Below are positions 1,614-21,797 of a stretch of 64,000 nt of DNA, piece by piece. The notes under the pieces are model-generated. The model ran no database searches. It was not told the DNA's origin and saw only the letters and a program-made list of their open reading frames with translations. Numbering within the stretch: position 1 is the stretch's first letter; each line of letters begins with the position of its first letter. The DNA is from Escherichia phage vB_EcoP_PAS59. The stretch lies in sequence record OQ921332.1; one strand, 5' to 3'. A program made the position numbers and the translations under genes.

Positions 1614-1615
1614 CG

Positions 1616-5101: not shown

Positions 5102-5120
5102 CCTATAATAAAACACATGA

Positions 5121-5931: not shown

Positions 5932-6375
5932 ATGGCTAAATCTAAAATCAGCATGAAAGGCGGACGAGTGTTCTCTATGAGTGAGCTGGAAAAAGAAAAG
6001 CCAGCCGCTGTTAGTCATATTAGCAAACGTAGCCTTAAACGAAGAGCTATGAAACAGGCCGCTCAAGCACATAAAGAATCACCTGTACCAAAGGTGCTAG
6101 GTCGTCGTGTTCATCGTGCTGATGCGCTTCTTCTTGCTGATCACAAGCGTTCCTTGTTAACCAACGGGGCAGCAAAAACAGAACAAGAAAAACGTTTAGA
6201 AATCTTTTGTAATGGTCGCACTAAAGGTAAGCAGAAGAATAAAGGTAGCACTAAGCCACCGAAAGCATTTCCTACTACTAGTCAATGTGCACCGGATGTT
6301 TTCTACGCTGACAGTAAACACAAGTGGGGAGTTGAAAAATATATTGACCCAATCAAAACAGCAAGAGTTAAGTAA
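5932..6375 (+). CDS. highly basic (Lys/Arg-rich) protein, possibly nucleic-acid binding
   Basis: ORF track; composition only. Confidence 0.45.
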   Translation: MAKSKISMKGGRVFSMSELEKEKPAAVSHISKRSLKRRAMKQAAQAHKESPVPKVLGRRVHRADALLLADHKRSLLTNGAAKTEQEKRLEIFCNGRTKGKQKNKGSTKPPKAFPTTSQCAPDVFYADSKHKWGVEKYIDPIKTARVK

Positions 6376-6405
6376 GCCCCTTCTGTACCAGTGGTCAACT
6401 ACTAT

Positions 6406-6454
6406 GACGCTCTTCTTGAGCGTCTTTTGTCTGCCGCCTCTGTGCGGCTTTTTG
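6406..6454 (+). terminator. two tandem rho-independent terminators
   Basis: GACGCTC/GAGCGTC stem + T-run, then GCCGC/GCGGC stem + T-run. Confidence 0.55.
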
Positions 6455-6612
6455 CGTAGCTAGTGATGCCTAAAGGGAACTCCCTTTGTGAATCATTGGC
6501 ATGGTTCAATCCCTATTGGATGGTCATTTGACCGGGCCTTTAACGAGGCCGCTTTTTTAAGAGTCTTTGCGAGGATTTTTAAATGAGTGAGGTCATGTTC
6601 ACTTTTCAGGTC

Positions 6613-6639
6613 GCCCCGTCTTCGGATGGGGCTTTTTTA
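6613..6639 (+). terminator. rho-independent terminator
   Basis: GCCCCGTC-ttcg-GATGGGGC followed by TTTTTT. Confidence 0.55.
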
Positions 6640-6690
6640 TGCCCGTAAAACAGGGGGTAGTAAGTTCTGATAACGACAGCACAGCTACTT

Positions 6691-7077
6691 TTGACATTGA
6701 CTATTTATTATGAGGCAGGGAATCAGCCAACCGCTTGCAAAGCATTAGTAGCGGATACCGTAATAAACAGAATGTCACAACGAAAACTGACTGCCGAGCA
6801 GGTTATAAATCAACGAAACCAGTTCGAGTGGATACCCGTCCTATTAAAGAAGGAGAAACCTTTTAAGCGTTATGTAAAGCTGATTCGTGATGATAATCCT
6901 CTGACGAAGAAGTCAATCAGAGAGAGCGAGTGGCTTGCAAGGCGTGCACTGAAGAAAGGTTATGTGCCTTTGTACAGCGGTACATACTTTCAGAGTAAGA
7001 GCGAAGGGGTGCCAAAGTGGTATACCAATCCAATGTATTGTGGTGATTTAGTGTTCAATAATAGTGCCCGTGATTGA
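6691..7077 (+). CDS. possible SleB-like cell-wall hydrolase domain protein
   Basis: ORF track (TTG start, no clear RBS); EAGNQ...VADTVINR resembles the cell-wall hydrolase motif. Confidence 0.3.
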   Translation: MTLTIYYEAGNQPTACKALVADTVINRMSQRKLTAEQVINQRNQFEWIPVLLKKEKPFKRYVKLIRDDNPLTKKSIRESEWLARRALKKGYVPLYSGTYFQSKSEGVPKWYTNPMYCGDLVFNNSARD

Positions 7078-7278
7078 TTCATAGGTGCCAAGATTGACAA
7101 ACTAAATTTCCTTATAAATCACACACTTATGATTTTCTCTGCAAAAAGTGGAAGTGATTTGGGACCAGAGGTAATGACTGTATATAGACCTCTGAAAATT
7201 ATTGATAGAAATTAAGTTTAGAAATAATAAATTCTAAATAACATTTCTTATAATATCTTACTTTAAGAGGATAAAGAT

Positions 7279-7584
7279 ATGACTTTAGAGGTTTATAGAT
7301 TCCTTCTCGTACTCACCGTAACGATTTCTGTTCTAGGATTTATTGCGTTAAGTAATAAGTCAGCAAGCTGGAAGCGTCGTTATGAGTTCCTTCTTAAGCA
7401 AGAGGAAGTCTTTAATGCTGATGTTCGTTCCAAACTGCTCAAGATGCAGGAGCAAATTGAAGCACGTAATGATCGTTTGGCTTCTTTGGGTTGGGAGATT
7501 AAACGTATTCAAGATCTCAACAAGCAACTCGCTGAAGAAATTAAACGCCAGAATGAGGAAACAGAGGATGCGCTCAAAGGTTAA
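7279..7584 (+). CDS. membrane-anchored coiled-coil protein
   Basis: ORF track; N-terminal TM helix then charged helical region. Confidence 0.5.
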   Translation: MTLEVYRFLLVLTVTISVLGFIALSNKSASWKRRYEFLLKQEEVFNADVRSKLLKMQEQIEARNDRLASLGWEIKRIQDLNKQLAEEIKRQNEETEDALKG

Positions 7585-7744
7585 GTTTACCACTGGTAAC
7601 ACTGTTCGCCTTGTTGGCGGTACTCAAACAGGTGTTATTCGTCGGAGAACAACGATTGATGGTGTTCTCTGTTATCTTGTTCAGTGGAATGGTGAGTCTT
7701 CTCCTTCCTTCGAACGTCGTACTGATTTGGTGCTAGTCAAATGA
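7553..7744 (+). CDS. hypothetical small protein
   Basis: C-terminal part of ORF track 7382..7744; internal ATG 7553. Confidence 0.3.
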   Translation: MRKQRMRSKVKFTTGNTVRLVGGTQTGVIRRRTTIDGVLCYLVQWNGESSPSFERRTDLVLVK

Positions 7745-7974
7745 AGATAAACTTCGAAATCATCCCAAAGGTTAAAGAAAAGCAGCTAATCTTCAGTGAT
7801 CTCTCTAACGGGGATATTTTTAAATTTAAGAATGTTGATGCTGATACTTATCTTTGGATGAAAATTGACAAACGGTCTGCCATGAAGTTAAGTGACACTT
7901 CTGACATCACTGATGTATTTATCCATTCTGAAGTCTCTAAGTACAAATACAAAATTATCATTGAGGGTAAGTGA
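7741..7974 (+). CDS. small protein, GDxF paralog family
   Basis: ORF track; SNGDIFKF motif shared with 7974, 8735, 11249, 12306, 13948. Confidence 0.5.
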   Translation: MKINFEIIPKVKEKQLIFSDLSNGDIFKFKNVDADTYLWMKIDKRSAMKLSDTSDITDVFIHSEVSKYKYKIIIEGK

Positions 7975-8204
7975 TGAAAATTAATCTCTTCTCTGTAGTT
8001 GTTACTAAAAAGCTCAGTGAGTTACGTCCGGGCGATGTATTCCGTTTACCGACTAACTCTGAAAATGTCTACCTAAAGACAGACACTAGACTTAACGATA
8101 TGCATCGTGTGGTTGGTCTTAGTCAGGGGACACTGTTCCAATTACAGGAAGACCATGAAGTTATCCCTGTACCTGATGTTCAAGTAACTCATATCAATGG
8201 TTAA
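7974..8204 (+). CDS. small protein, GDxF paralog family
   Basis: ORF track 7971..8204; PGDVFR ... IPVP shared with 13948..14199. Confidence 0.5.
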   Translation: MKINLFSVVVTKKLSELRPGDVFRLPTNSENVYLKTDTRLNDMHRVVGLSQGTLFQLQEDHEVIPVPDVQVTHING

Positions 8205-8206
8205 GT

Positions 8207-8340
8207 AACATCGACTTATAGCCCTTGTGTTTATCAGAGGGCTATGTGAGGGTGTTCCTCAATTAACTATAATCTCAACGCCATATGGCTCACCGCTAGG
8301 GCGAGACTTGTCTCAAACATCCGGTGATAGACTAAAACCT
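8207..8340 (+). repeat. conserved intergenic element, copy 1 (perfect 8-bp hairpin 8218-8245 plus ~90 nt of conserved sequence)
   Basis: near-identical to 14201-14340, including ATAGCCCT-loop-AGGGCTATGTGAG and CTCAAACATCCG. Confidence 0.55.
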
Positions 8341-8510
8341 GTTAATTTTCGAACAGCTTTCCGATATGTAGGGGTATGTATCGGTTTGGGATAGAGAACA
8401 ATCTAGGGGTAGAGAGTTCTCGACAGTTAGTACAAGCGGAAGCCTTAACGTGTAGGGCTTCCCTTTATATTAACTGGCAAACCTGCCTCCACCAACAAAG
8501 AGAGAACGAT

Positions 8511-8651
8511 ATGAAGAAGACAACCAAACGTATGAACCGTCCTGAACGTATGGATGCAGTAGCAAATGGTGCTCTGAAGATTGAGTCTGCCATGCTTCGT
8601 CTGACAACTAACATCCGTAAGCGTCAAGGTGATTGGTTCTACGGTGGATAA
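8511..8651 (+). CDS. hypothetical small basic protein
   Basis: internal ATG of ORF track 8376..8651 behind AGAGAGAA. Confidence 0.3.
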   Translation: MKKTTKRMNRPERMDAVANGALKIESAMLRLTTNIRKRQGDWFYGG

Positions 8652-8734
8652 TTAATAATGGGCTGCCCTTCGGGGTGGCCTTTGTTGTTTTAATTAAGGG
8701 ACAACTCTTAATTAAACTAACAAGAGAGGTTGAT

Positions 8735-8986
8735 ATGTTCAATCGTTTATTTGACCGTAAAGGTCGCACTGACATACTGATACCCTCTATCGGTGTGCCA
8801 GCTAAGTTCGGTGAGATACGTGCTGGTGATTTCTTCATGGAATCAGGTCGTCTTCATCTGAAGATTAATCTTGAACACGCTGTAGAAATCCTCAGTGATG
8901 ATAAGCCAATCATTGGCACTTCGGTGTACAGTGCAAACCATACTGTATTTGTTGTCAACGTCCAGATTGAGATTAAAAAGCCATGA
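8735..8986 (+). CDS. small protein, GDxF paralog family
   Basis: ORF track 8633..8986, start moved to ATG 8735 behind AGAGAGG; AGDFF motif. Confidence 0.45.
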   Translation: MFNRLFDRKGRTDILIPSIGVPAKFGEIRAGDFFMESGRLHLKINLEHAVEILSDDKPIIGTSVYSANHTVFVVNVQIEIKKP

Positions 8987-9291
8987 CAATTTCATCTTCA
9001 ACTCGCTGCAATCCTAATGTAGATATCCGTGCTCAAATGTCTAAGATGCCCGGTGTTACTCATTTAGAGTTCACCTACAGTCACTCGCGGTATGAACCGG
9101 GCTTTACTGTGGTAATAAAATCTCCGTGGTTAACAATGACATTGTTCTCGGATGAAGTTGAGAAGGCGGTGAATGGTATTAAGTCAGGCGGACTTAAACT
9201 TTTATCCACTGAACTGGCTGATGAGTTCATGCCTCTTATCCGTAAAGGTGTGGCTAAAATGAACAAAATGATGGAGGCTGCAAAGCAATGA
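8983..9291 (+). CDS. hypothetical protein
   Basis: ORF track; ATGA overlap. Confidence 0.45.
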   Translation: MTISSSTRCNPNVDIRAQMSKMPGVTHLEFTYSHSRYEPGFTVVIKSPWLTMTLFSDEVEKAVNGIKSGGLKLLSTELADEFMPLIRKGVAKMNKMMEAAKQ

Positions 9292-9542
9292 CAAACTTCC
9301 GAGCAGCAGTTATTACGAAAGTAATAGCAGTTGGTGATGTAATGATGCAAGTTCCTCTGAACACTCGTTACATTGCCATTGACCGAATGGGTTATGTGTG
9401 GGCTTGGAAGTGGAAGCCTACTTACAATGAACTGTTCGACGAATACCAGTGCGCTGGGCCTTACATGCCAACGTTGGTTGGTGTGTATGAAGACGGTCCT
9501 TGTCGTACTCCTCAGTTAATTGAACTACCGGCGTGTGCTTAG
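9288..9542 (+). CDS. hypothetical protein
   Basis: ORF track. Confidence 0.45.
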   Translation: MTNFRAAVITKVIAVGDVMMQVPLNTRYIAIDRMGYVWAWKWKPTYNELFDEYQCAGPYMPTLVGVYEDGPCRTPQLIELPACA

Positions 9543-9543
9543 T

Positions 9544-9708
9544 ATGATTAAATGGTTCAAGCGTCTTGTGCATCTGCATGATTGGGTAATCCTTGAAAAA
9601 TATACGCTGAAGATTACTGACGATCACGGTGGGACAAAGCACAAAGGTCTTCGCTATATTATGCAGTGTAAAGTGTGTGGTCATGTTACCAAGCGTGACA
9701 TGATCTAA
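9544..9708 (+). CDS. small zinc-ribbon-like protein (tandem paralog 1 of 3)
   Basis: MIKWFKRL...CKVCGH; internal ATG of ORF track 9520..9708. Confidence 0.45.
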   Translation: MIKWFKRLVHLHDWVILEKYTLKITDDHGGTKHKGLRYIMQCKVCGHVTKRDMI

Positions 9709-9717
9709 GGGATCATT

Positions 9718-9882
9718 ATGATTAAATGGTTCAAGCGTCTCTTTCATTTCCATGAGTGGGAAGATCTTTCTACTTATGAATTGACGATCACAAATAAACT
9801 TACTGACAGAGAGCGACAAGGGTTGCGTATCTACTCTCGCTGTAAAGTGTGTGGTCTGCACAAGAAAACAGATTTGATCTAA
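9718..9882 (+). CDS. small zinc-ribbon-like protein (tandem paralog 2 of 3)
   Basis: 54-aa ORF below the track cutoff; MIKWFKRL...CKVCGL. Confidence 0.4.
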   Translation: MIKWFKRLFHFHEWEDLSTYELTITNKLTDRERQGLRIYSRCKVCGLHKKTDLI

Positions 9883-9890
9883 GGGGTGTT

Positions 9891-10100
9891 ATGTTCTTTC
9901 GTAAGAAAAAGCCCGAAGATTCTGGATGTAAACATGAATGGGTGGTCACTGAAAACTTACATATCACTCACGCTAAAGACACTCCAGTAGAGAGAAAAGA
10001 ATCTCGTGTATCTCGCATCTGTAAACACTGTTTGAAAATAGAACAGCATAAAGTTCCCGGTCATATCGGTCATGATGTGGCCTTGCGTATTTTCAGTTAA
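9891..10100 (+). CDS. small zinc-ribbon-like protein (tandem paralog 3 of 3)
   Basis: internal ATG of ORF track 9849..10100; H.W ... ICKHC. Confidence 0.4.
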   Translation: MFFRKKKPEDSGCKHEWVVTENLHITHAKDTPVERKESRVSRICKHCLKIEQHKVPGHIGHDVALRIFS

Positions 10101-10109
10101 ACAAATCCA

Positions 10110-10185
10110 GCACCCTTAGCTCAATGGACAGAGCAGCGACCTTCTAAGTCGTTGGTTACAGGTTCGAATCCTGTAGGGTGCACCA
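10110..10185 (+). tRNA. tRNA-Arg (anticodon TCT)
   Basis: hand-folded cloverleaf: acceptor GCACCCT/AGGGTGC, D-arm GCTC..GAGC, anticodon loop CTTCTAA, T-arm ACAGG-TTCGAATC-CTGT, encoded CCA. Confidence 0.85.
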
Positions 10186-10203
10186 ATCAACGTAGGAGGG
10201 TTT

Positions 10204-10344
10204 ATGACCCCTGAGTTTAATGAGTGGTTCGATGATATCTTTACTTCTCCTTTGTTCAGCGAAGAAGAAAGAGAAGAACTTAAAACCTACCTATGGATGG
10301 CTTGGCGAGATAGCCGCCGTAAGGCGCTTCAGGAGGGATCATGA
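10204..10344 (+). CDS. small protein (46 aa), paralog of 11879..12010
   Basis: EWF...EELKTY.W.AWRDSRRK shared; below the track cutoff. Confidence 0.4.
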   Translation: MTPEFNEWFDDIFTSPLFSEEEREELKTYLWMAWRDSRRKALQEGS

Positions 10345-10667
10345 GCTGGGGTGGTGTAATTACCTTAACCTGTATCTTTATCGCCTGTGTAGCTCTTACA
10401 GGCTGTGTACAGCATCGTCCTGATGGGTGGTGTGCATTATCTGTAGAAGGTGTCTGTGTTTCCCGTTGGCATAGTGGGGAGAAGGTTCCTAGCGGTGAAA
10501 TTGATATGCGTTATGCTGGCGCTTCTTGTTCTAATGGCGGTGCTGTTGACGAGAAAGCTTATGCAAAACGTGACATGGAAACACAAGGTGATTGGTCACG
10601 ATACGACTTCATCTCCCGTGGTGTACAGTGTAGTGGCTCTGTGACAACAACAGGTAAGGAGTGGTGA
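10341..10667 (+). CDS. Cys-rich secreted protein or lipoprotein
   Basis: ORF track; signal peptide with LTGC lipobox-like site. Confidence 0.4.
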   Translation: MSWGGVITLTCIFIACVALTGCVQHRPDGWCALSVEGVCVSRWHSGEKVPSGEIDMRYAGASCSNGGAVDEKAYAKRDMETQGDWSRYDFISRGVQCSGSVTTTGKEW

Positions 10668-10668
10668 T

Positions 10669-10923
10669 ATGTCTAGTCATTATTCTGATACGAAAGCTTT
10701 ACTGGAAACAGCGGCTCAGACTTCATGCCAACAGCAAGTAAAAATGTTGTTGGTTGATATTCGTAATCTGCGTTGGCTTATCAAAGAAGGTCATATCGGA
10801 AACGCTGCCTATTACAACGTTAAAGATATCCTTCGCCGCCAGCACTTTCTTATCCACGGAAACGTGGTCACTCGCAACTATCAGTGGAATGGTCAATGGT
10901 TACAGCAGCGTATGTCCTCCTGA
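10669..10923 (+). CDS. hypothetical protein
   Basis: ORF track. Confidence 0.4.
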   Translation: MSSHYSDTKALLETAAQTSCQQQVKMLLVDIRNLRWLIKEGHIGNAAYYNVKDILRRQHFLIHGNVVTRNYQWNGQWLQQRMSS

Positions 10924-11150
10924 TTTATGTTATTGGTTGGTGGTTAGCAGCCATCGTAGTTAAGTGGTGCTTCAAAACCAATACATTCTATAACTTCTTC
11001 CACAACCCGTGGAGTGGTAAGCCTGATGAATATTCTATCTGGATAGTAATATTCTTCTGGCCTATTTTGTTATTATTCCTCTTACTCATCCCTTTCATGC
11101 TCCTGTTAGGGTGGGTGTTGGACAAGATGACAATCTTTATTATACATTGA
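10896..11150 (+). CDS. small membrane protein (paralog of 11622..11870)
   Basis: two hydrophobic helices; shared F.WPI motif; internal ATG of ORF track 10884..11150. Confidence 0.4.
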   Translation: MVTAAYVLLIYVIGWWLAAIVVKWCFKTNTFYNFFHNPWSGKPDEYSIWIVIFFWPILLLFLLLIPFMLLLGWVLDKMTIFIIH

Positions 11151-11248
11151 AAGAAAGGATTAATAAAACCCACTTCATCATGTATGGTCGTACTAGAAGT
11201 TATATCAAGTATGACTTTTGGAACTCTTACTACGGTTAGGATGTTATT

Positions 11249-11470
11249 ATGAAACTGAATTCTAAACAGTGCCTTAAAACTGTTGAACTATCCTCCCTCT
11301 CTAATGGGGATGTTTTTGGGCACGATAAACATTTCTGGATTAAAACAGATTTCTTAAATGACGGGTACATCACCTGCGTCAATCTTTGGAATGGTTCGGT
11401 AGATGGTTATCGCCCTAGTGCACAAGTGGTTCCTCAGCCTGATGCAAAGGTTGTAGGTTTAGTCTACTAA
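11249..11470 (+). CDS. small protein, GDxF paralog family
   Basis: ORF track; SNGDVFGHDKHFWIKTD. Confidence 0.45.
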   Translation: MKLNSKQCLKTVELSSLSNGDVFGHDKHFWIKTDFLNDGYITCVNLWNGSVDGYRPSAQVVPQPDAKVVGLVY

Positions 11471-11479
11471 GGAATTCAT

Positions 11480-11653
11480 ATGGCTTGCTATGGTGGTGGT
11501 GAAGTGTGTGACGATGATGACATGGAATCCAACGGAGAGTGCCCTGACTGTGGGTGTGAGACGTGGAATGGTGTGTCAGTATATCCTGCCTGTAGTTATT
11601 CACCAGTGATTTGTAAAACATGTGGAGATCAACCTTGTGATCAGTCCTGTTAG
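11480..11653 (+). CDS. small Cys-rich protein (57 aa)
   Basis: ATG behind AAGGA; CPDCGC and CKTCGDQPCDQSC clusters; below the track cutoff. Confidence 0.4.
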   Translation: MACYGGGEVCDDDDMESNGECPDCGCETWNGVSVYPACSYSPVICKTCGDQPCDQSC

Positions 11654-11870
11654 TGTGTTAATAGTCTACCTGATAGGTATTGTGTTAACCTCAGCTCTGA
11701 TAAAATTCCTTGATGTAAAAGGTAGTGTCGAGTTCAGAGGATGGGGTAACGAACCAAACCTATCAAAGATAGCAATTATAGTTTTTCTATGGCCCATTGT
11801 TGCTGTGATGTTTATATCCCTTTGCTTGTGGGCAGGGCTGTGGGGTTTCATTCTTCCTAAAAAGGAGTAG
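11622..11870 (+). CDS. small membrane protein (paralog of 10896..11150); start uncertain
   Basis: ORF track; F.WPI motif. Confidence 0.4.
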   Translation: MEINLVISPVSVLIVYLIGIVLTSALIKFLDVKGSVEFRGWGNEPNLSKIAIIVFLWPIVAVMFISLCLWAGLWGFILPKKE

Positions 11871-11878
11871 GGGTATTT

Positions 11879-12010
11879 ATGACTAAAGAATTTTTAGAGT
11901 GGTTTGGAAATACCTTCAAAGAATATCTATTCTCTCCAGAAGACTTTGAAGAGCTGAAAACCTACACTTGGTTGGCTTGGAGAGATAGCCGACGAAAAAT
12001 GAATAAGTAA
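11879..12010 (+). CDS. small protein (43 aa), paralog of 10204..10344
   Basis: ATG behind AAAGGAG; EWF...EELKTYTWLAWRDSRRK. Confidence 0.4.
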   Translation: MTKEFLEWFGNTFKEYLFSPEDFEELKTYTWLAWRDSRRKMNK

Positions 12011-12305
12011 TATCGTGAAGGACTCTTACGAGAGTCCTTTGAGATAGGACTTCAGATCTTCTATCAAACTAACTTTCACGTAACTAGCCCATAAGGGCGT
12101 TACCCTTCAATAACCCAGCCCACTAAGGGGGCGGGAGTTTAGTGCTGGAAAAGCATAACGCTTATCCTACAAAGGCAACCGATTGTTAGATCTTACATGC
12201 AATATTAATTAATAGGATATGGGAGGATTCGTCCCCTCCCCCTATTTATGAAAGCATTCTCCCGAGAGTTCTCTCATAAATTGGTCCATAACTAAAGGTG
12301 GTAAA

Positions 12306-12560
12306 ATGAAAGTTAACAAACCAGCCAGTAAGAACGCAATACCACTCAGCGCTCTGCGTCTTGGGGATTGCTTCATGTACCCTAACAGTGAAGATGGTGA
12401 TTTGTATATCTTACTGTCTACAGAGTTCTCCACTCGTTTGTGCATTAAGGGTGCGGACGAGCACAGACTTGTAGCCTGTCTTAACACAGGCCGAGCGACA
12501 GCTCCTCGTAAAGATGTTGCTGTTATTCCTATTAAAGCTGAAGCAACTATTAAGGAGTAA
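12306..12560 (+). CDS. small protein, GDxF paralog family
   Basis: ORF track; LRLGDCFMYP. Confidence 0.45.
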   Translation: MKVNKPASKNAIPLSALRLGDCFMYPNSEDGDLYILLSTEFSTRLCIKGADEHRLVACLNTGRATAPRKDVAVIPIKAEATIKE

Positions 12561-12563
12561 GCA

Positions 12564-12827
12564 ATGGCTCTGACCATTAACAAAACTCGTATTGCGGATA
12601 TTCCTCTAATGGTGGCAGGTGTTTCTATCGGTTCTTTCTTTACTTTGAAAGAAGATAAAGAACAAACCATTTACATGAAAGTGAACAAAAGCTCTAATGG
12701 TTGTGAATACCACCGAGCTGTGTCTGTGCAGAGTGGATACGTTCGTAATATGGCATCCAATATGCCAGTTGGTGTTGTGTTTGAATCAGCAACTCTGGAT
12801 TTAGTGGAGAAGATCAGTGAAACATAA
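12564..12827 (+). CDS. small protein (divergent GDxF-family member?)
   Basis: ORF track. Confidence 0.4.
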   Translation: MALTINKTRIADIPLMVAGVSIGSFFTLKEDKEQTIYMKVNKSSNGCEYHRAVSVQSGYVRNMASNMPVGVVFESATLDLVEKISET

Positions 12828-13074
12828 AGACCATCCAAAGTATGTATCGCTATTGGATGCAGCCCTTCTCTGCACGTACTGGCTCCTTATTGTTATTGGG
12901 GTTGTGCTAATGATATGTGGTGTCGTACAGTTCTTTATGTATCTGCAAAGCGTGTTAGATACCACATTAGCTAACACTATAATCCTTGCAATTCTCGGTG
13001 TTATTGCTTTCTGTGTGATTGTCTTCTTCGTTTGGTTATCTATGAACGACGACTCTACACACACCTTCTATTGA
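12817..13074 (+). CDS. small membrane protein
   Basis: ORF track; two hydrophobic helices. Confidence 0.35.
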   Translation: MKHKDHPKYVSLLDAALLCTYWLLIVIGVVLMICGVVQFFMYLQSVLDTTLANTIILAILGVIAFCVIVFFVWLSMNDDSTHTFY

Positions 13075-13273
13075 CAGGAGAAAATCAGTGAGAAAACGTG
13101 CCTACTCTGAAGAAGAAATGGTTAACTTGAAAGGCTTCGGTCAACGACAGCCTGACGGTTCAGTTATCTGGTACATTAACGGACAGAAAAAGGCAAGTAA
13201 ATAAGCCCTCTTCTCTCCTCCTTTTAACTACTATGACGCCTCTCTTTTCGGCGCTGTTTTGGAGCTTCAAAAA

Positions 13274-13687
13274 ATGGCTGGGAAATTCCCCAACGTAAGC
13301 AAGAAATTGGCTTACCTCACGTATAAAGAAAACATTGATCTTCTGGTCAAGCTTTATCCGGCTTCATTCAACAAGCAATTCCCTCTTCCTTTGGAGCTTA
13401 ACATCCATAAGGAAATAGCCCGTAAGACCGGTTGGTCAGCGGAGAAAACAAGCATGGTGCTCAACATCTGGACTACTCGTATGGAGTATGTGATGATGGC
13501 CTGTAGCACTGGTAAACGCTTCAAGCTGCACTCTGTAGCTATGAAGATTCGTAGCCCTATCGACCCTGAGCCGATGGCTGGGTTCAGTAGCCGTTTGAAA
13601 TCTTTCCGTGATCGTGGTCGTGTAGTGAAATTCAAGCATGACTTCTCTTACAAGTTTGGATACGAAGCGTTCCAATTTGTTGTTTAA
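13274..13687 (+). CDS. ProQ/FinO-domain RNA-binding protein (putative)
   Basis: internal ATG of ORF track 13259..13687; pattern YPASFNKQFPLPLELNIHKEIARKTGWSAEKTSMVLNIWTTRMEYV aligns with the E. coli ProQ N-terminal domain as recalled. Confidence 0.45.
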   Translation: MAGKFPNVSKKLAYLTYKENIDLLVKLYPASFNKQFPLPLELNIHKEIARKTGWSAEKTSMVLNIWTTRMEYVMMACSTGKRFKLHSVAMKIRSPIDPEPMAGFSSRLKSFRDRGRVVKFKHDFSYKFGYEAFQFVV

Positions 13688-13714
13688 TCTCTCTTTAAAA
13701 TAAGGTAATAAAAC

Positions 13715-13948
13715 ATGTCTAAAGTTAGCGCAATTGATGCCATCCGTCAGCCGTTCCAGTTCCAGTCTAAATCAACTCAGACCCACAGCGAACCTAAACA
13801 GATTCGTCTGGGCGGTACAGAGAAGACTGTATTTGATATTGCGAAAAACAAAAGCGTAACCATCGTCGAAGGCGGCGAACTGGTTAATGTTTCCCACCGT
13901 ATTCGCACTGGCAAGACTGCCAAAGATCGTGCTAAGAAAGGTTTGTAA
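13715..13948 (+). CDS. hypothetical small protein
   Basis: ORF track; translation-initiation region AAGGTAATAAAnATGTCTAAAGT repeated at 34410. Confidence 0.45.
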   Translation: MSKVSAIDAIRQPFQFQSKSTQTHSEPKQIRLGGTEKTVFDIAKNKSVTIVEGGELVNVSHRIRTGKTAKDRAKKGL

Positions 13949-14199
13949 TGCAAATTTCCAATAAAACACCTCCTGAGCCTACTGTTCAAGTAAAAGATAT
14001 GACACCGGGAGATGTGTTTCGTTCGGTTGAATATCCGGGGGAATTCTTTATCCGAACCCCTTCTGCCTCTGTTGATGGTGTCACTAAGCCGGTAACAGCA
14101 GTTCAGTTGAGCACAGGTCATCTCTTCCGTTTAGAGCTTGACATGGCAGCTATTCCTGTTCCGACAGCAATCCTCCGCTTCGACGGAGACACAGAGTAA
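13948..14199 (+). CDS. small protein, GDxF paralog family
   Basis: ORF track; PGDVFR ... IPVP. Confidence 0.5.
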   Translation: MQISNKTPPEPTVQVKDMTPGDVFRSVEYPGEFFIRTPSASVDGVTKPVTAVQLSTGHLFRLELDMAAIPVPTAILRFDGDTE

Positions 14200-14200
14200 C

Positions 14201-14340
14201 ATCTATAGCCCTCGTGAGTATCAGAGGGCTATGTGAGCTATTCTGGCTCAACTAACCTAATCTTAATTTAATCTTACCCGTATGGGGCCGATGCTAGGGA
14301 GAGGAACAATCCTCAAACATCCGTCGGATAGAATATTTTA
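14201..14340 (+). repeat. conserved intergenic element, copy 2 (hairpin 14206-14231)
   Basis: near-identical to 8207-8340. Confidence 0.55.
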
Positions 14341-14604
14341 AGAGCAGGTTATCCACAGATATTGGGTGATATCTATTTAATTGGCCTTAAAGCTTGGCTC
14401 TCTTAGGAGAGTCCTTTTTTAAGTTCAAAGAAGAGGTTGTATGGATAATAAGTTGAAAGCTAAATTCTTATTGGCAGCAATCTTTATTTGCTTAGCCACT
14501 GTAGGGTTTGTCAGGATGTACTCTTTTGCATCTTGTGAATTAAGCAAGAATGATAGAGGGTCTTACAACTGGCTAACCAATCAATGTGACAAACAGGAGA
14601 AGTT

Positions 14605-14967
14605 ATGAACCTACGCCCCATTAAAGGCCATGTGAACCTGTCTACGCTTCATAAAGTAGCAAATGATTTAGGTGGTATGGATGAGAATGATTTGGAGCAG
14701 AATTTGCTCTGGATTGCTAATGGCATCAAGGCGGCAAAGGCCAAAATGGCTCGTGCACAAGGTAAACTAAAAGCGAATAAATATCTTATTCGTCGTCGTA
14801 ATGTCTTGCCTCAGGATGTGGTGAGTTTAGCTTTATCGGGATATAAAGCGGCAGAGTTAGAACTTCAGGAAGCTGAATTTGAAAAGATGCGCTTCCAAGA
14901 GAACTATCGAAACTTCCGTAGTATTGACTACATTCGCAAATCTCTGGGCCTTCTGGTATCAGAGTAA
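14605..14967 (+). CDS. hypothetical protein
   Basis: ORF track. Confidence 0.5.
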   Translation: MNLRPIKGHVNLSTLHKVANDLGGMDENDLEQNLLWIANGIKAAKAKMARAQGKLKANKYLIRRRNVLPQDVVSLALSGYKAAELELQEAEFEKMRFQENYRNFRSIDYIRKSLGLLVSE

Positions 14968-14977
14968 AGAGGTAAAA

Positions 14978-16195
14978 ATGTTCCCTGTAACACTTCAAAG
15001 CTGGAAAGAATCAGAAGACGTTGTAACTGTTTGGCCTCCTTGTTATGGTTTCCTGAAAGCAGGTTACTATCAGGGTGGTGATTATGATGAAGATGAAGAT
15101 GGTTATCCTGACTACTACAACGCATATGACAGCAATTTTGGCTGGAATATCCGTATTAAGGTGTGGAGTGAGGGTATGATGGTTCGTCAAGGCACTGCTG
15201 AAGAGAATGTTCTCGAAAACATGATGCCTATGTCCGAAATCAAGTACATCTGGAACTCTGGTACACACCTTCCCGCTTATGGTGTAAAACGTTATGGCGA
15301 TAAAGAGCCTATTACCACTCAGTATTTCCGCGAAGGGTTGGAGAATGGAGACCCTCGTCCTCCGTCTCATGTAGAAACATGGGCAGAAGAAAACAACCGT
15401 CCTGATATTACTGATCGCGCTGTAATGGAAACCTTTGAAGCATTCATGGATAAAGACCTCGATTCATGTCTGGTGTGGCATGAAGCAGGATTCATGGGTG
15501 TTTGTACTGATGGTTGTCCTGCTGATCGCGCTCTGTTCTATCTGATGCTGAATCGCACATTCTATACAGATGATGAAAAATCTGCTGTGTATGAAATGTT
15601 GAACAAGATGTATAAGAAGGGCTGGTCTCCTTTAGCCTCTCTTGCATTCAGCCGACTGATCAACTCTTCAGTGGATGTGTTCGGTAACGAACGTGTTGCT
15701 TTAACAGGGAATGATTACGATTCCTGTATCTTCCAAGCATCTCTGTATACAGTGGGTGTTGGCAGTACAATGGTTGAACCTCGCCAGACCAAGTGGCGAC
15801 AGTGTGAATACACCGAAGGTGAAGGGCATCTTCGTGATGAAGACTTCCCCAGTCTGCTCTACCGTAGTGAAGGTGTGCGAGACTGTCGAGTGAATAACTC
15901 AATGTTCTTACCAATCCTTCTTCCTCAGTATTGCAATCTGCCGAATGGTGAACGTCCGGTCATCACAGAGAAGTCACTCTTGGTTGAATTTATCCGAGAA
16001 GTAGCTGAATCTGAAACATCTTTTGATAAAATTGTGTTCGGTTATAACTGGAACAATGAAACAGCTTCAGCTCGAAGCTACAACACGTATAACATTATCA
16101 GTAGTATGTCCAATGGACTGACAGGTAGTAATTATACAGTACGTCCCTCAGAAGAGTGGGAAAACATTTTGGAAAAATTATTCTTCAATAAATAG
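14978..16195 (+). CDS. large acidic Trp/Tyr-rich protein of unknown function (first gene of the amide-ligase block)
   Basis: ORF track 14879..16195; ATG 14978 behind AAGAGG. Confidence 0.55.
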   Translation: MFPVTLQSWKESEDVVTVWPPCYGFLKAGYYQGGDYDEDEDGYPDYYNAYDSNFGWNIRIKVWSEGMMVRQGTAEENVLENMMPMSEIKYIWNSGTHLPAYGVKRYGDKEPITTQYFREGLENGDPRPPSHVETWAEENNRPDITDRAVMETFEAFMDKDLDSCLVWHEAGFMGVCTDGCPADRALFYLMLNRTFYTDDEKSAVYEMLNKMYKKGWSPLASLAFSRLINSSVDVFGNERVALTGNDYDSCIFQASLYTVGVGSTMVEPRQTKWRQCEYTEGEGHLRDEDFPSLLYRSEGVRDCRVNNSMFLPILLPQYCNLPNGERPVITEKSLLVEFIREVAESETSFDKIVFGYNWNNETASARSYNTYNIISSMSNGLTGSNYTVRPSEEWENILEKLFFNK

Positions 16196-16203
16196 AGGCG
16201 AAT

Positions 16204-17154
16204 ATGTCAATCTCCGCATCGATTGCTCCGGTAACACCGGCAGAGGATTTCGGTGAGTCAGTGTTTAAAGGAAGGGCTTGCTTTGGTACTTTTAACTGTA
16301 TGCACATGTACTCTGTTACAGACATTAATGGCGACAGTCTTAGACAAACAAACCTTCGTGATAGAACTTCAGAAATTGAAGTTATTAACTTCTGGCCTCA
16401 CAATTTTTATGGCGTACCGTCTAAAGATATCGAAAGAGCTTTAGTTGAAGCAACAGACATTTTTAACTCAATGTCTTGCTATAAAGATATGTTCTCTGTC
16501 ACTTCGGTGAACTCTATTGCCGTGAACCTTCGAAACCATCCAGCAGACAAGGTGTTTACTGGACTAATGACCATCCGTAGCTATTTGGATGGTGATTTTA
16601 ATGGAATGGAGTTCCTTCAGGAAGGCGTACAAGACAAGGAAGAGTTGCTTAAGCGACAACGAATCGGTTTAGCTCTACGCCTAGCTGGTTTAAGTCGTAA
16701 CTTCTTTGGTCGCTGGTGTTATAGTAATGACGTAGACTCAACTGATGAGTCAGCAGCGACTTATTTTGATGGTGACATGAGTGCAATTGCATTTCTGCCA
16801 CTAATTTGCACCACTGATGAATTTTCTGAAAACGTATGGGTTCAGAATGTGTTCGGTGTTGATGATAACCGAGATGGTTATGTACGAAACCATAATGATG
16901 GAGTTCTCCGTCGTATGGCACGTCGTCGTGACCAAGACCCTGACCATTATGAGAGTATGAGTGAGTGGTTGCGTCTCTGGTCAACTTGTGCAGGTCACAA
17001 GCGAGAAGTATTAGATCAGCGTATGGACAGAATTACTGTTCGCAGTTTTATTGAACGTCTGATGCAAGCAGTACCTTCCTCAATGACACCAGAAGAAGCT
17101 GGTGCCCGTGTTGTTTCCCTTTTTGATGAACTCGTGGAGTATTACAATGACTAA
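16204..17154 (+). CDS. protein of unknown function
   Basis: ORF track; stop overlaps next start. Confidence 0.55.
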   Translation: MSISASIAPVTPAEDFGESVFKGRACFGTFNCMHMYSVTDINGDSLRQTNLRDRTSEIEVINFWPHNFYGVPSKDIERALVEATDIFNSMSCYKDMFSVTSVNSIAVNLRNHPADKVFTGLMTIRSYLDGDFNGMEFLQEGVQDKEELLKRQRIGLALRLAGLSRNFFGRWCYSNDVDSTDESAATYFDGDMSAIAFLPLICTTDEFSENVWVQNVFGVDDNRDGYVRNHNDGVLRRMARRRDQDPDHYESMSEWLRLWSTCAGHKREVLDQRMDRITVRSFIERLMQAVPSSMTPEEAGARVVSLFDELVEYYND

Positions 17155-17953
17155 GCGCGCTTTCCTTATTGGCTCTGACCCTGAAATGTTTGTTCGTACT
17201 GCTTCCGGTATTATCACCTCTGTGGCTGGTAAGCTGGGCTGTTCTAAAGATAATAAAATTGATCTGGCTCCTGATGTTCGTCTTCAAGAAGACAACGTTC
17301 TGGCTGAATTCGATATTAACCCACAGAAAGGGTTTGAAGCGTTTGATGATAATATTCAGCGTGGTATTGATCTGACTAACAAAGTTCTCAATGAACGTGG
17401 CATGGAGGCAGCACTTGGGATTAGCTCTCATGTGTTCACTTCAGAAGAACTTGAATCATTCCACCCGTCAGCTTTTGTATTTGGCTGTACTCCTGATTTC
17501 AATGCCTTCACTGGACAAAAGAACCCTTCACCAGTCGCAACCGATAAGGGTTTGCGTACTGCTGGGGGTCATGTGCACCTTGGTGTCTCCGGGACTTTAG
17601 AGATTACTCGACAAACTCAAATGATGTTGGGTGTGTTATGTGATTACTTCCTGTCCTTGCCAGCTGTGATCATGGATAAAGACACTCGTCGTAAAGAGTT
17701 GTACGGAAAGGCTTCTGCCATTCGCTACAAAGATTACGGTATTGAATATCGTTCTCTTTCTAACTTCTGGATTGGTGATAAGTCCACTCGCAAGTTTGTT
17801 TACGAGCAAGTGGATAAGGTTGTTCAGGGTTGTGATATGGAAGTGTTGATGTCACTTCACTCTCGCCTTCCAATTGAAAAGCTTCATAACATCATCAACA
17901 GCAACGATGTTAAAGAAGCGGATAAATTCTCCTCTAAACTCCAGATTGTATAA
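17147..17953 (+). CDS. glutamine-synthetase/GCS-like carboxylate-amine ligase (amidoligase), putative
   Basis: internal ATG of ORF track 17102..17953; motifs GSDPEMF, GGHVHLG, GIEYRSL in the order of the E..E / H.H / E.R motifs of YbdK-type ligases. Confidence 0.4.
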   Translation: MTKRAFLIGSDPEMFVRTASGIITSVAGKLGCSKDNKIDLAPDVRLQEDNVLAEFDINPQKGFEAFDDNIQRGIDLTNKVLNERGMEAALGISSHVFTSEELESFHPSAFVFGCTPDFNAFTGQKNPSPVATDKGLRTAGGHVHLGVSGTLEITRQTQMMLGVLCDYFLSLPAVIMDKDTRRKELYGKASAIRYKDYGIEYRSLSNFWIGDKSTRKFVYEQVDKVVQGCDMEVLMSLHSRLPIEKLHNIINSNDVKEADKFSSKLQIV

Positions 17954-17962
17954 GGTGATATT

Positions 17963-18589
17963 GTGAGCTTGTTAAGAGATTTTCAACACTATTATTGTGG
18001 AACATGGATTGCTCAGCGATCACCTGATGGTAAAAACCTCCCTCTATATGTGCTTGATGTTCGTCAGCAAGGTAACTTTGATATCGACGACTACTCACAC
18101 GACGCTGAAAGGTCTTTAGTGTTTGAGGCGGAACGCTGGACTAAAAACTCTGAAGGTCAGTTTGAACGTCAGATTGTTAGTAATATCCCAGTGTTTGATC
18201 ACAGCCTCATTCTAGAGTCTCCAGATGTAGGATACCTTCAGCATGGTAATAACATGGTGAGCTGGACCCATATCAACCCTGTTCGTCAGCGAGCTAAAGG
18301 CTTGATGGGGAATAAACTTCGTGGTGCTGCACCTTCTCTCGGACGTTCGATTCCGGGTGATTTGGTGTACAACTTGTTTAATCCAGAGTTTGAAGGGTTG
18401 GTTACTCGTTTCATCTATATCAACCCTGTCGATGGAAAAGTGTATTACAAAGGGGCTTACGTTGGAAACGTGCTTCTTGAAGCTGGCTATGGCGACAACG
18501 GTCGCCAATCTTTAAACCTTCTGGAGAAGTTCAAGCACATTTCTTCAGACCTGTCATCATATAATGTAGAGTTGGTGGAATCACTATGA
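17963..18589 (+). CDS. protein of unknown function
   Basis: ORF track; RBS AAGGTGA. Confidence 0.5.
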   Translation: MSLLRDFQHYYCGTWIAQRSPDGKNLPLYVLDVRQQGNFDIDDYSHDAERSLVFEAERWTKNSEGQFERQIVSNIPVFDHSLILESPDVGYLQHGNNMVSWTHINPVRQRAKGLMGNKLRGAAPSLGRSIPGDLVYNLFNPEFEGLVTRFIYINPVDGKVYYKGAYVGNVLLEAGYGDNGRQSLNLLEKFKHISSDLSSYNVELVESL

Positions 18590-19686
18590 CAACCGTAGCA
18601 CAAGTTTTTGGATACCGTAACCCTCGCTTATCTGAACCGCATCCAAGCATTGCTTTTCAGTGTGGTGTTGGTATTGAGTTAGAAGTCGAAGGTACTACTG
18701 ACATTGACGTTGATATGTGGGTTTGTACTGAAGACGGCTCTCTTCGTGATGGTTGTGAGTTAGTGTGTTCACGACCTTACAACGGTGAAGAATTACTTCG
18801 TGCTATTAACAATCTGAGTGAAGCAGTACAGGATTCTGGAGCCGAGGGGACTTGGCGCTGCTCCACTCACGTTCATATGGATATGCGGGACGCTGATAGT
18901 AATATCCTTAAGAAAGTTATTCTTGGGTGGACGTTCTATGAAAAGATGATGTTCAAATGTTCTGGATATCATCGTTACCGTAGTAACTTCTGCCCAGCTT
19001 TTGCTGTTGTTCAAGCTCAAGTTATGAATGCTTCATCAGCGTTCAACCGAGATGGGGAAGATTTCTTCCGTACTCTTGTTAATAGCTGGGACAAGTATAC
19101 CTCCCTTAACCTGTTGCCTCTATCTCAGTTTGGTTCTGTTGAGTTTCGTATTTCAGAGCCGAAGTGGAAAAAGAGTCAGCTGCTAAATCTGGTCAATCGC
19201 TTCTTGGTTCTCAAGAAACTGGCTGTTGAATATGCAGATTTAGATAATGAAGCTTATGTTGAGAAGTTGAATGAGCTGCGCTTCGCTCCTATGATTCAAC
19301 ATCTACCTCTAGACTATACTCCAAGAGATAGCGATCTCACTGAAGGGTATCGTCTTGCCCGTGATATTCTGTTCTGTCGTGAGCAATCTGTAACTTTGGT
19401 TGGTCGTGTTCGTGTGCAACAGACTGGCCCTGATGGTGAAGTCCTTATCAACTTACGTGACATGAATGACTTCTATGGTTTCTTGGGATATGTGCGCGGT
19501 AATGCCAACACTGTCTATGAAGAGATCATGACCTACTACACCCCTCAGATTGAAAGCACTCGAATCGCAACGGTTCGTGAAATTCGTCACATGTTTGCAT
19601 TGATGCGTGAATCAGGTAGCAGTGATAATAACATCACTGATTACATTCCAGACCATCTGGAAATGCAATTAGAACGACTGCTGTAA
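18586..19686 (+). CDS. glutamine-synthetase/GCS-like carboxylate-amine ligase (amidoligase), putative
   Basis: ORF track; motifs GIELEVEG, CSTHVHMD, SVEFRISE. Confidence 0.45.
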   Translation: MTTVAQVFGYRNPRLSEPHPSIAFQCGVGIELEVEGTTDIDVDMWVCTEDGSLRDGCELVCSRPYNGEELLRAINNLSEAVQDSGAEGTWRCSTHVHMDMRDADSNILKKVILGWTFYEKMMFKCSGYHRYRSNFCPAFAVVQAQVMNASSAFNRDGEDFFRTLVNSWDKYTSLNLLPLSQFGSVEFRISEPKWKKSQLLNLVNRFLVLKKLAVEYADLDNEAYVEKLNELRFAPMIQHLPLDYTPRDSDLTEGYRLARDILFCREQSVTLVGRVRVQQTGPDGEVLINLRDMNDFYGFLGYVRGNANTVYEEIMTYYTPQIESTRIATVREIRHMFALMRESGSSDNNITDYIPDHLEMQLERLL

Positions 19687-19763
19687 CACAATGGGCGCTC
19701 TGATAAAGGGCGCATTTAAAGGTTAATTAGATGAAAGGGTTTACCCTTCAGGTGGATTAGAAA

Positions 19764-21797
19764 ATTTGTGGTATCGTATTAGCTGGCGGCAACATGACCT
19801 CAACAGATTTGGATATTTTCAACCAACTTCTGTATGCTGGTGTTTTCCGTGGACAGCACTCAACTGGTGTGTTTGGTCAGCGTAAAGGTGAAAAGCAAGT
19901 CTTCTCTTATAAAGAAGCTCTTCCTTCTTATGCTTTTATGCTCCAGACAGAATATACAAATATTACCAAAGGGCTTACGAACTACGTAGTTCCTCCTTCG
20001 TGGATTGTTGGTCACAGCCGACATGCCACTCGTGGGGCTGTCAATGCTCGAAATGCTCACCCATTTACTCACGGGGATATTACTCTGGTTCATAATGGAA
20101 CCCTGTTAGATCAAGATCTCCTTCCTGACAGTAAGCGTTTCGAAGTTGATAGTGAAAACATCTGCCACTCAATTAATACCATTGGAGCAGCAGAGACTAT
20201 CCAAAAACTGGATGGTGCATTCACTTTGATTTGGCATGATGCTAAAGACAACACGCTTCACATTATCCGTAATGATGAGCGTCCTTTCCACCTAGCCCGT
20301 TGTGGTTTAGATTGGTTTGGGGCTTCTGAAGAAGCTATGCTTATGTGGATTTTAGAGCGTTCTAAATCCCACAAGAACCGTATCAATGACCACTTCGAAT
20401 GTAAAGTGGGAACTGAGTATATCTTTGATGTGTCTAACAGTCGTATGACTCTGGTTCAAGAGGTGGAGCACAAGCTTCCGGTTTTTACGATAACGAGTCG
20501 CTGGGGCGGCTATTACTCGAACTCCTCTCTATATCAGAACCGACAGACAAACAAATCAAGCAGCAGCACAAGCGACATTTACGGAAACAAAGACGACAAG
20601 CCCGGCGTGACAAGCGGAGACATTCGTCGTCGTAAAGCGATTGAAGACCAGAACAAACTGGCTGCCGATCGTGGTCTTCCTTATCGTCGTGATGGTCGTG
20701 TGGATATTATTCCTCACGAGTTCCATGCTTATAACAACACAGATCGTGGTAAGATGGTTGGTTACATCTACGACGATAAAGCCCAAGAGTATGTCGAAGG
20801 GGATGTTCACAACGTAGCCAAAGATGAATATCTTAAGGCTCTTGAAAACCCAAAGGTAGTATATCGCGGGACGATTGCTTGTATCTCCGAAGTGGACAGT
20901 ATGATTCGCCTCGTACTAACTTCAGGGCTGTTTGTTGATGCTACAGATAAGGAGCCTCAAAGCACTACTGCTGATTTTGATGATGATATCCCTTTTGATG
21001 CAGAGGACTCCTTCATCACTAAAAATGGTGTAGAAGTCACTCGTAAGTTCTGGGAATCTCACTCTCATGGAGATTGTGGTGGCTGTGATAAGCACATTGA
21101 CTGGAAAGATGCTCGTAAGGCTGTGTTTGCTTACCAAGCGTACTGGCATCCAGAATGCTTCGAAGCGTTGTCTAAAACCTCTGAAGAGGAAGAAGACGTA
21201 CCTTTGGGTGTATGTGCTGTCTGTGGTGAAGTCAAGACTGATTTCGAGTTTGACAACGAAATGAGTAAACTTCGTGGTGAAGATATTTGTTATATCTGCT
21301 CCAAAGAAATCAAAGATAAAGTAAAAAATGTTACTCTGTCTGAAGGTTATATTTGGACTAAAGCAGTAGACACAACTAATCCGCGTCGTCCTGAAGTGGC
21401 TGTTCGTGTTGATGAACGTATGCTTAGCCGTATGATTGTAATGGTCAGCTCAGCAAAACGTTCAGGGGATATTACACTCGCAGATGTTCCTAACTCATAT
21501 TTGGAAAAACGTGGTGGCGATACTTATGCCATTTCCGTTTACGGTCCAAAGAATGCCCCAAAGGAGGTACCCGCTGAGAAAGCGGAGACATTTCCAGAAA
21601 AATCAACCTCTCTCCGAAAAACAGTTGTCAGTTATGACGGACAACGAACAGCTGAGTTCACAAAAGCCCTCTGGACTTCAATTGGGTTTTGTGCAGTCTG
21701 TTATAAACAAATTCCGTGGCGTGATGCAGAAACTTGCTCACTAAACAAAGAAAATAGAGTGATCTGTAATTCAGATTACTGTAAAGGTAAACACTAA
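19764..21797 (+). CDS. class-II (Ntn) glutamine amidotransferase with Cys-rich C-terminal extension; start proposed at ATT 19764
   Basis: ORF track gives 19794..21797, but the in-frame codons just upstream encode (I)CGIVLAGGN, the canonical N-terminal Cys of PurF/GlmS-type amidotransferases; RGQ motif; C-terminal CxxC clusters. Confidence 0.5.
   Translation: MCGIVLAGGNMTSTDLDIFNQLLYAGVFRGQHSTGVFGQRKGEKQVFSYKEALPSYAFMLQTEYTNITKGLTNYVVPPSWIVGHSRHATRGAVNARNAHPFTHGDITLVHNGTLLDQDLLPDSKRFEVDSENICHSINTIGAAETIQKLDGAFTLIWHDAKDNTLHIIRNDERPFHLARCGLDWFGASEEAMLMWILERSKSHKNRINDHFECKVGTEYIFDVSNSRMTLVQEVEHKLPVFTITSRWGGYYSNSSLYQNRQTNKSSSSTSDIYGNKDDKPGVTSGDIRRRKAIEDQNKLAADRGLPYRRDGRVDIIPHEFHAYNNTDRGKMVGYIYDDKAQEYVEGDVHNVAKDEYLKALENPKVVYRGTIACISEVDSMIRLVLTSGLFVDATDKEPQSTTADFDDDIPFDAEDSFITKNGVEVTRKFWESHSHGDCGGCDKHIDWKDARKAVFAYQAYWHPECFEALSKTSEEEEDVPLGVCAVCGEVKTDFEFDNEMSKLRGEDICYICSKEIKDKVKNVTLSEGYIWTKAVDTTNPRRPEVAVRVDERMLSRMIVMVSSAKRSGDITLADVPNSYLEKRGGDTYAISVYGPKNAPKEVPAEKAETFPEKSTSLRKTVVSYDGQRTAEFTKALWTSIGFCAVCYKQIPWRDAETCSLNKENRVICNSDYCKGKH

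Follow-up and report, generated by a model that had tools for sequence, protein, structure and literature searches.

A minimal FinO-domain protein with an apparently altered RNA-binding surface, encoded by an accessory gene of a Suseptimavirus-like coliphage

The gene considered here lies at positions 13274-13687 (+ strand, stop codon included) of the window, viz. the whole stretch of 64,000 nucleotides of Escherichia phage vB_EcoP_PAS59 (OQ921332.1) that was analysed. It begins with an ATG at 13274 and is closed by a TAA ending at 13687, giving 137 codons and a stop; these are exactly the coordinates and the length of 137 aa given in an earlier note on this DNA, in which the product was described as a possible ProQ/FinO-domain RNA chaperone. 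A Shine-Dalgarno sequence, GGAG, is present at 13261-13264 (+ strand), 9 nt before the ATG; it shows no variation across 10 phages, and in the record of Escherichia phage vB_EcoP_SU7 (SU7) a ribosome-binding site is annotated at the equivalent position. A longer reading from a TTG at 13259 is mechanically possible; ATG is the start in every annotated orthologue. When the gene is compared with its nine orthologues, dN/dS values of 0.035-0.083 are obtained and most of the substitutions fall at third codon positions (e.g. 5/2/22 for UKE3). Based on this substitution pattern and these dN/dS values, it is a real and constrained protein-coding gene, which is under strong purifying selection. Its product is strongly basic, with 24 Lys and Arg residues, 11 Asp and Glu residues and a computed pI of 10.0. 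The 69-nt spacer upstream of the gene (13205-13273) is almost unchanged in the 10 phages, where only four columns vary, one of these through an indel in a run of A, unlike the synonymous sites of the gene, which diverge (dS 0.07-0.33). Phage phiEco32, which lacks the gene, shares the first ~49 nt of this spacer, in which a CU-rich tract and a small hairpin (CGCC/GGCG) are found.

The region from 12000 to 15000 of the window is 93% identical to SU7 and 90-93% identical to ECBP2, EK010, E20-1, Bas86-88 and others, these relatives being phiEco32-like podoviruses of the genus Suseptimavirus within the Gordonclarkvirinae. Some part of the 3 kb surrounding the gene is matched by 137 records, and the FinO-like gene itself is found in 21 phage records. 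It is absent from phiEco32 and other Kuravirus phages, is present in one genus of the subfamily only, and is dispensable for the lineage as a whole. In a blastn comparison of the window with phiEco32, homology stops at 13253 and restarts at 13715, which is the ATG of the homologue of phi32_93. Due to these clean breaks in homology, and to the presence of its own ribosome-binding site, the gene can be regarded as a clean accessory cassette (13254-13714, + strand), placed between the homologues of phi32_94 (a 38-aa gene upstream) and phi32_93, where phiEco32 has instead ~60 nt with a hairpin. No second FinO-like gene was found in the 64,000-nt window.

The gene is part of a series of small genes on the + strand, between hairpins at 12221-12240 and 14396-14419. 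The latter, detected by a pattern scan, is a terminator-like hairpin with a T6 run (+ strand), the nearest of its kind downstream of the gene; a terminator is annotated at its equivalent in the SU7 record, and it is probably the 3' end of the transcript that carries the FinO-like gene. In phiEco32 the early gene cluster is thought to serve host takeover, and the consensus recognised by the phage sigma factor is tAATGTAtA (PMC8948821). From synteny only, we infer that the FinO-like gene presumably belongs to this early, host-takeover cluster. The exact phage-sigma motif TAATGTATA does not occur on the + strand between 626 and 33995, and the FinO-like cluster is located, in the order of transcription, upstream of the next exact copy on this strand, at 33995. 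Other exact copies are present at 41046 (+), 40975 (-) and 51676 (-), and the copy at 626-634 is overlapped by a near-consensus sigma-70-like promoter (609-636; TTGACA-16-TATAGT). Three further promoters of the TTGACA type are clustered at 2930, 3090 and 3257 (2930-3285). Terminator-like hairpins are enriched in positions 1-20000 of the window, where 27 are found, mostly on the + strand, in comparison to 13.9 +/- 3.9 in shuffled sequences; transcripts ending in a hairpin and a U-tail, the canonical ligand of FinO domains, should therefore be plentiful. Several of these hairpins stand in tandem (6406, 6433, 6535 and 6613). The early region also contains a tRNA gene at 10110-10182 (Rfam RF00005, 73 bits), and in the SU7 record a tRNA-Arg is annotated in the early region upstream of the FinO-like gene. 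Further, three ORFs of ~84 aa near the gene (12306-12560, 12564-12827 and 13948-14199) are paralogues of each other, with cross-matches to phrog_7832, 12612 and 6570, and direct repeats of 72-78% identity (9543-9617/9717-9791 and 10263-10322/11938-11997) reveal more pairs of paralogous small early genes.

FinO-domain proteins form the third major class of bacterial sRNA-associated RNA-binding proteins. The sequence of the phage protein by itself gives a borderline match to the Pfam ProQ family PF04352 (27.2 bits, E 4e-6, residues 18-87 on profile positions 5-78 of 109), barely over the gathering score of 27.0, and no other significant Pfam domain was found in the 137 residues; weak matches to DUF7343 (E 6e-4) and Ribosomal_L31 (E 0.067) fall under their own cut-offs and were dismissed, and an NCBIfam match to L31 is likewise sub-threshold noise. 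A word-indexed search for homologues recovered its own cluster only, and an exhaustive HMMER search of 1.84 billion representatives was needed to obtain 45 proteins at E <= 1e-3, of which 39 were aligned and used as the family alignment and profile. All 39 of these aligned relatives match PF04352 (best 1.7e-20), which is also the precomputed Pfam assignment of the representative of the 97%-identical cluster, and the protein matches phrog_18901 (9e-63). A search of the PDB sequences with the single sequence gave chance matches only (E > 1), and here too the family profile was required: with it, the N-terminal domain of E. coli ProQ (5nb9) was retrieved at 1.2e-15, Legionella RocC (7rgu) at 1.6e-12, FinO (1dvo) at 5.4e-11, Lpp1663 (6s10) at 6.6e-10 and NMB1681 (3mw6) at 5.8e-7, the first match after the FinO domains having an E of only 0.47. 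On these profile comparisons, the similarity to the ProQ/FinO family is well beyond chance. The motif on which the earlier note relied agrees in its spacing; in its residues the agreement is only partial, as the protein has YPASF and not FP..F, PLELNI and not PL.IGI, and W66..R69..Y72 and not Y..S..Y.

Structure prediction, which the earlier note had suggested as a check, returned a FinO fold and not an unrelated one, and the domain assignment therefore stands. The AlphaFold2 model built from the family alignment is confident (pLDDT 93.2, pTM 0.86); in a Foldseek search of the PDB, the top 26 chains were all FinO-domain chains with probability 1.00, followed by a jump to E >= 1, and ~97 residues of the phage protein superpose on the solved FinO domains. 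The model has the FinO fold, viz. a helical domain with a beta-hairpin: its canonical core consists of residues 10-110 (13301-13603, + strand), with helices at 10-27, 44-52, 56-68 and 70-79, a beta-hairpin at 81-83/93-95, and a helix at 98-110. The call of a ProQ/FinO-domain protein is thus borne out by Pfam, by the family profile against the PDB, and by AlphaFold2 with Foldseek. However, as the protein is a single compact domain of 137 aa, whereas in the host's own homologue, ProQ (232 aa), the FinO domain is followed by a basic linker and a Tudor-like C-terminal domain, neither of which is present here, it should be interpreted as a minimal FinO-domain protein and not as an orthologue of ProQ. 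This classification is already known from public databases, in which proteins of 96-99% identity carry it. In the GenBank records of Suseptimavirus the orthologue is a "hypothetical protein" throughout, while in UniProt/UniRef the orthologues of SU7, PAS59 and IME267/UKE3 are named "ProQ/FinO domain-containing protein". The occurrence of FinO/ProQ homologues on bacteriophages has been noted in a review (PMC9977716). Phage FinO-domain proteins are a recognised group, and the classification adds nothing new beyond correcting the GenBank label to the existing UniProt name.

Members of the subfamily are found by tblastn, at 28-36% identity (E 4e-11 to 5e-7), in other virulent phages, viz. the Salmonella phages 7-11, SE131 and pSal-SNUABM-01, Aeromonas Lahexavirus, and Kolesnikvirus-like phages of Erwinia (phiEa21-4-like), Hafnia, Enterobacter and Salmonella, and metagenomic members are located on contigs of phage-like size (up to 100 kb). 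Minimal FinO domains encoded by virulent phages of several lineages are recorded in the databases, and are mentioned in the review cited above. The window protein and its virulent-phage relatives share a signature, W..R.EY...R, and BFVD models of these relatives match at TMq 0.63-0.79. Some of the relatives are labelled 'ProQ/FINO family protein', 'sRNA-binding protein', 'proQ: RNA chaperone' or 'putative RNA chaperone'; in the literature searched, no functional study, RNA ligand, expression data or phenotype was found for a FinO protein of a virulent phage. The proteins of the 7-11 type differ in having an additional C-terminal domain of ~100 aa that is absent in the window protein. Phage FinO-domain proteins of 227-250 aa with an extra conserved C-terminal domain include that of pSal-SNUABM-01 (L002 2477-3205) as well as P0012, P0014, P0018, P0027 and P0030, and a note in the pSal-SNUABM-01 record ties the extra domain to the T4 'uncharacterized 12.8 kDa protein in cd-pseT intergenic region'. 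A second, unannotated FinO-fold protein (G0X575, 125 aa, Foldseek E 5e-6) is apparently encoded by phage 7-11 in addition to G0X555, and a FinO-fold protein of Cronobacter phage GAP52 (K4F7Y7) is also among the BFVD matches. In two unrelated phages, Salmonella pSal-SNUABM-01 (L002 4166-5345) and Erwinia Harbringer (L003 523-2355), the FinO-like gene adjoins genes of NAD salvage, encoding nicotinamide or nicotinate phosphoribosyltransferase and in pSal-SNUABM-01 also ribose-phosphate pyrophosphokinase, which may be a coincidence. A plasmid origin of the gene was rejected, as tblastn gave no match at E <= 1e-3 among 72,556 PLSDB plasmids; in this respect too the phage protein stands apart from plasmid FinO and FopA.

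For comparison of the binding sites, the window protein, ProQ and RocC were aligned to the family HMM by hmmalign, and the roles of the residues were taken from earlier studies (PMC9674577 and PMC10168233). According to these studies, Y70/R80 of ProQ and Y87/R97 of RocC form a pocket for the 3'-terminal nucleotide, with the arginine at its base, and the N-cap serine (RocC S70, ProQ S53) contacts consecutive phosphates of the hairpin stem. The equivalent residues are all kept in the phage protein: Tyr72 (codon 13487-13489, + strand) and Arg82 (codon 13517-13519, + strand) are invariant in 39/39 members of the subfamily, and Ser55 aligns with the helix N-cap, where Ser or Thr is found in 29 of the 39 relatives. 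Further residues that are kept include T67 (ProQ T65), the aromatic W66 (ProQ Y64, RocC F81), K58 (RocC K73) and R107 (RocC K119), and within the subfamily P29, F32, L40, W66 and R69 are, like Y72 and R82, invariant, with E71 nearly so.

In contrast to this pocket, the basic row of helix 3 is lost. Within codons 55-64 (13436-13465, + strand), which begin with the retained N-cap Ser55, residues A56, S60 and N64 replace K54, R58 and R62 of ProQ, the first two also standing for K71 and R75 of RocC (7rgu, bound to the RocR terminator), and elsewhere K35 and R32 of ProQ have become E41 and L38. The position of ProQ R58/RocC R75, which together with K54 and R62 contacts the hairpin stem (PMC10168233, PMC9674577), is ~80% Arg and otherwise Lys in the family, whereas in the phage subfamily it is Arg in merely 6/39. 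These residues matter for binding: of the five positions of ProQ that affect it strongly or moderately, K54, R58 and R62 make up three. With the change R58A, none of the seven RNAs tested was bound any longer, and the defects of K54A and R62A were moderate (PMC10168233), while R75D in RocC led to a >100-fold loss of binding (PMC9674577). The turn glycine of the PLxIGI motif (ProQ G37, RocC G52) is also changed, being Asn43 here and in each of the nine orthologues compared, and Gly in 35/39 of the wider subfamily. Asparagine is able to take the same turn conformation as glycine, and N43 may thus be structurally conservative. The window protein departs from its own subfamily in two other positions, K84 (Asp in 23/39) and S87 (Gly in 32/39), whereas in most phage relatives the glycine of the turn is retained, as is the D/G of the RxDLxG motif. 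It has, in addition, a three-residue insertion, K91-R93, in the beta-hairpin, and a subfamily-specific basic C-terminal extension, residues 111-137 (13604-13684, + strand), which is predicted confidently by AlphaFold2 (pLDDT 94-98) as an extra basic helix (114-128) with a hydrophobic tail, FGYEAFQFVV, and lies outside the ~97 residues aligned to solved FinO domains. Its pattern F120/F124/F128-G129/A132-F133 is common to about half of the subfamily and to the protein of Salmonella phage 7-11 (TMq 0.79, 123 columns). The minimal ProQ of N. meningitidis, NMB1681, a chromosomal global RNA binder with ~20% identity, differs from the phage protein in these two features as well, viz. the beta-hairpin insertion and the extra basic helix. 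As far as can be told, the altered RNA-binding surface of the phage subfamily has apparently not been described before.

If the loss of these basic residues and of the turn glycine reflects a loss of RNA binding, then the FinO fold could have been re-used for a non-RNA role, e.g. the binding of another protein or of DNA, with Y72 and R82 kept for structure only; the pocket tyrosine of RocC is buried and the change Y87F leads to misfolding (PMC9674577), so that conservation of the tyrosine could be structural. However, the invariance of R82 together with the frequent N-cap Ser/Thr is characteristic of the site for RNA 3' ends, the protein has a pI of 10, and no characterised FinO-domain protein has a non-RNA function (PMC9977716). 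We therefore consider a non-RNA role highly unlikely. The conserved pocket and the high pI speak instead for the binding of structured RNA by the phage protein, as we infer from its sequence.

The reading that we favour, and to which we give about even chances, is that the phage protein protects hairpin-terminated 3' ends early in infection, mostly those of the phage's own early RNAs. In this model, a minimal single-domain FinO protein would be made from the early cluster of a virulent Suseptimavirus-like coliphage and would, shortly after infection, bind RNAs that end in a hairpin at their 3' ends; there the kept Tyr/Arg pocket and the N-cap serine would clamp the 3'-terminal nucleotide and, at the foot of the intrinsic-terminator hairpin, the backbone, as in RocC and ProQ. 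Burial of the 3' end would shield the bound transcripts from polyadenylation and from 3'-to-5' exonucleolytic decay, and the most plausible clients would be the many terminator-ended early RNAs of the phage itself. There is precedent for such a role in the host protein, as the ligands of ProQ include terminator hairpins and 3' ends are protected by it (PMC10168233, PMC12086684), those of its mRNA targets being kept from decay (PMC12086684). Due to the replacement of the K54/R58/R62 ridge by A56/S60/N64, the contacts to the hairpin stem must differ from those of ProQ; other basic residues may substitute for the ridge, viz. those of helix 44-52, K84, K91 and R93 of the beta-hairpin, and those from R107 to K127 in the C-terminal helix. 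Against 3'-end protection speak the non-basic equivalents of K54, R58 and R62, the Asn at the turn glycine, a Pfam score barely above its threshold, and the absence of the gene from phiEco32 and the other Kuravirus phages.

A more far-reaching reading of the same changes, which we hold to be quite improbable, is that the Suseptimavirus protein, with much of its phage subfamily, represents a functionally distinct kind of FinO domain, in which the 3'-end pocket was kept, the stem ridge dropped and a basic C-terminal helix gained, and which follows a different rule of 3'-end recognition, with an early role in shielding against, or disarming, a host process. Such proteins might recognise e.g. 3' tails with or without a hairpin, or structures of a different class, and could shield transcripts from, or disarm, decay by PAP I/PNPase, regulation by host ProQ, or RNA-based toxin-antitoxin triggers.

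If the clients were host RNAs, then the protein could act as a host-directed takeover factor which competes with ProQ, or replaces it, on host RNAs. It could hold ProQ-dependent sRNAs, including type I antitoxin sRNAs, after shut-off of host transcription, or strip ProQ from its targets. This would be in keeping with the role in host takeover thought to be served by the early cluster (PMC8948821), and with the presence of the accessory cassette in one genus of the subfamily only, which is typical for host-interaction genes. With a 3'-end pocket like that of ProQ, the same class of RNA ends could be recognised, and SibA and SibB are bona fide ligands of ProQ (PMC10168233). However, the stem-binding ridge of ProQ is not conserved, making an overlap of the two ligand sets uncertain, no match to the PADLOC models of defence and anti-defence was found, and the relevance of antitoxin RNAs to infection by this phage is speculation; we accord this explanation little likelihood. 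If either 3'-end protection of phage transcripts or interference with ProQ holds true, the protein would provide an example of post-transcriptional takeover of the host through RNA 3' ends, and its altered binding surface would constitute a natural experiment on the choice of ligands by FinO domains.

Those FinO-domain proteins of mobile elements that have been characterised are encoded on plasmids and specialised for one or two RNAs (PMC9977716, PMC9674577), and the phage protein is, like them, a minimal FinO domain. It could thus be a dedicated matchmaker, which binds one or two small or antisense RNAs of the phage and promotes their pairing with phage or host mRNA, serving as a timing switch and not for general stabilisation. 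The models for such a function are FinO (FinP/traJ), FopA (Inc/repZ) and RocC (RocR). RocC, a chromosomal repressor of competence (230 aa), has only one sRNA as its partner; in plasmid FinO a long N-terminal helix is present and the target is the cis-antisense RNA FinP, and no RNA of this kind was found for the phage gene. A terminator-like hairpin with T6 is present on the minus strand at 13294-13277, covering the start codon and codons 2-7 of the FinO-like gene. A FinP-like cis-antisense RNA at this site was rejected, as there is no minus-strand promoter-like site nearby; the hairpin carries two uncompensated changes in its stem in UKE3, HC-25922 and Bas87, one such antisense hairpin is within chance expectation, and its occurrence is probably due to chance.

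The operon is also flanked by long and unusually conserved non-coding blocks, which could be taken to favour a matchmaker: block 12000-12249 is 94.4% identical to phiEco32, whereas the nearby genes are 82-86% identical. However, it would be incorrect to interpret these blocks as dedicated RNA partners of the protein, as phiEco32 carries the same blocks without the gene and Rfam detected no RNA family in 11900-14600; being equally present in phiEco32, the blocks are independent of the FinO-like gene. Further, no conserved synteny or partner gene was found in the distant phage relatives. As no candidate RNA was found that co-varies in its presence with the gene, the matchmaker explanation is weakened and we regard it as unlikely, and protection of hairpin-terminated 3' ends is retained as the preferred reading. 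Block 12000-12249 also matches Salmonella phage PKM.Hi.22.6 (84%), and matches of 60-140 nt (78-81%) to it occur in the unrelated-looking 72-kb coliphages nithesis, Bas96, PBM-3 and UE-M6. The second block, 14195-14436, is 84.7% identical to phiEco32 and 71% identical to Salmonella phage 7-11, in which it is annotated as 'terminator'. Both blocks could be regulatory cassettes, recombination linkers or non-coding RNAs. A hairpin-forming sequence of 34 nt, TATAGCCCT...AGGGCTATGTGAG, occurs with 91% identity at 8217-8250 and at 14204-14237, in each case just after a different gene cluster.
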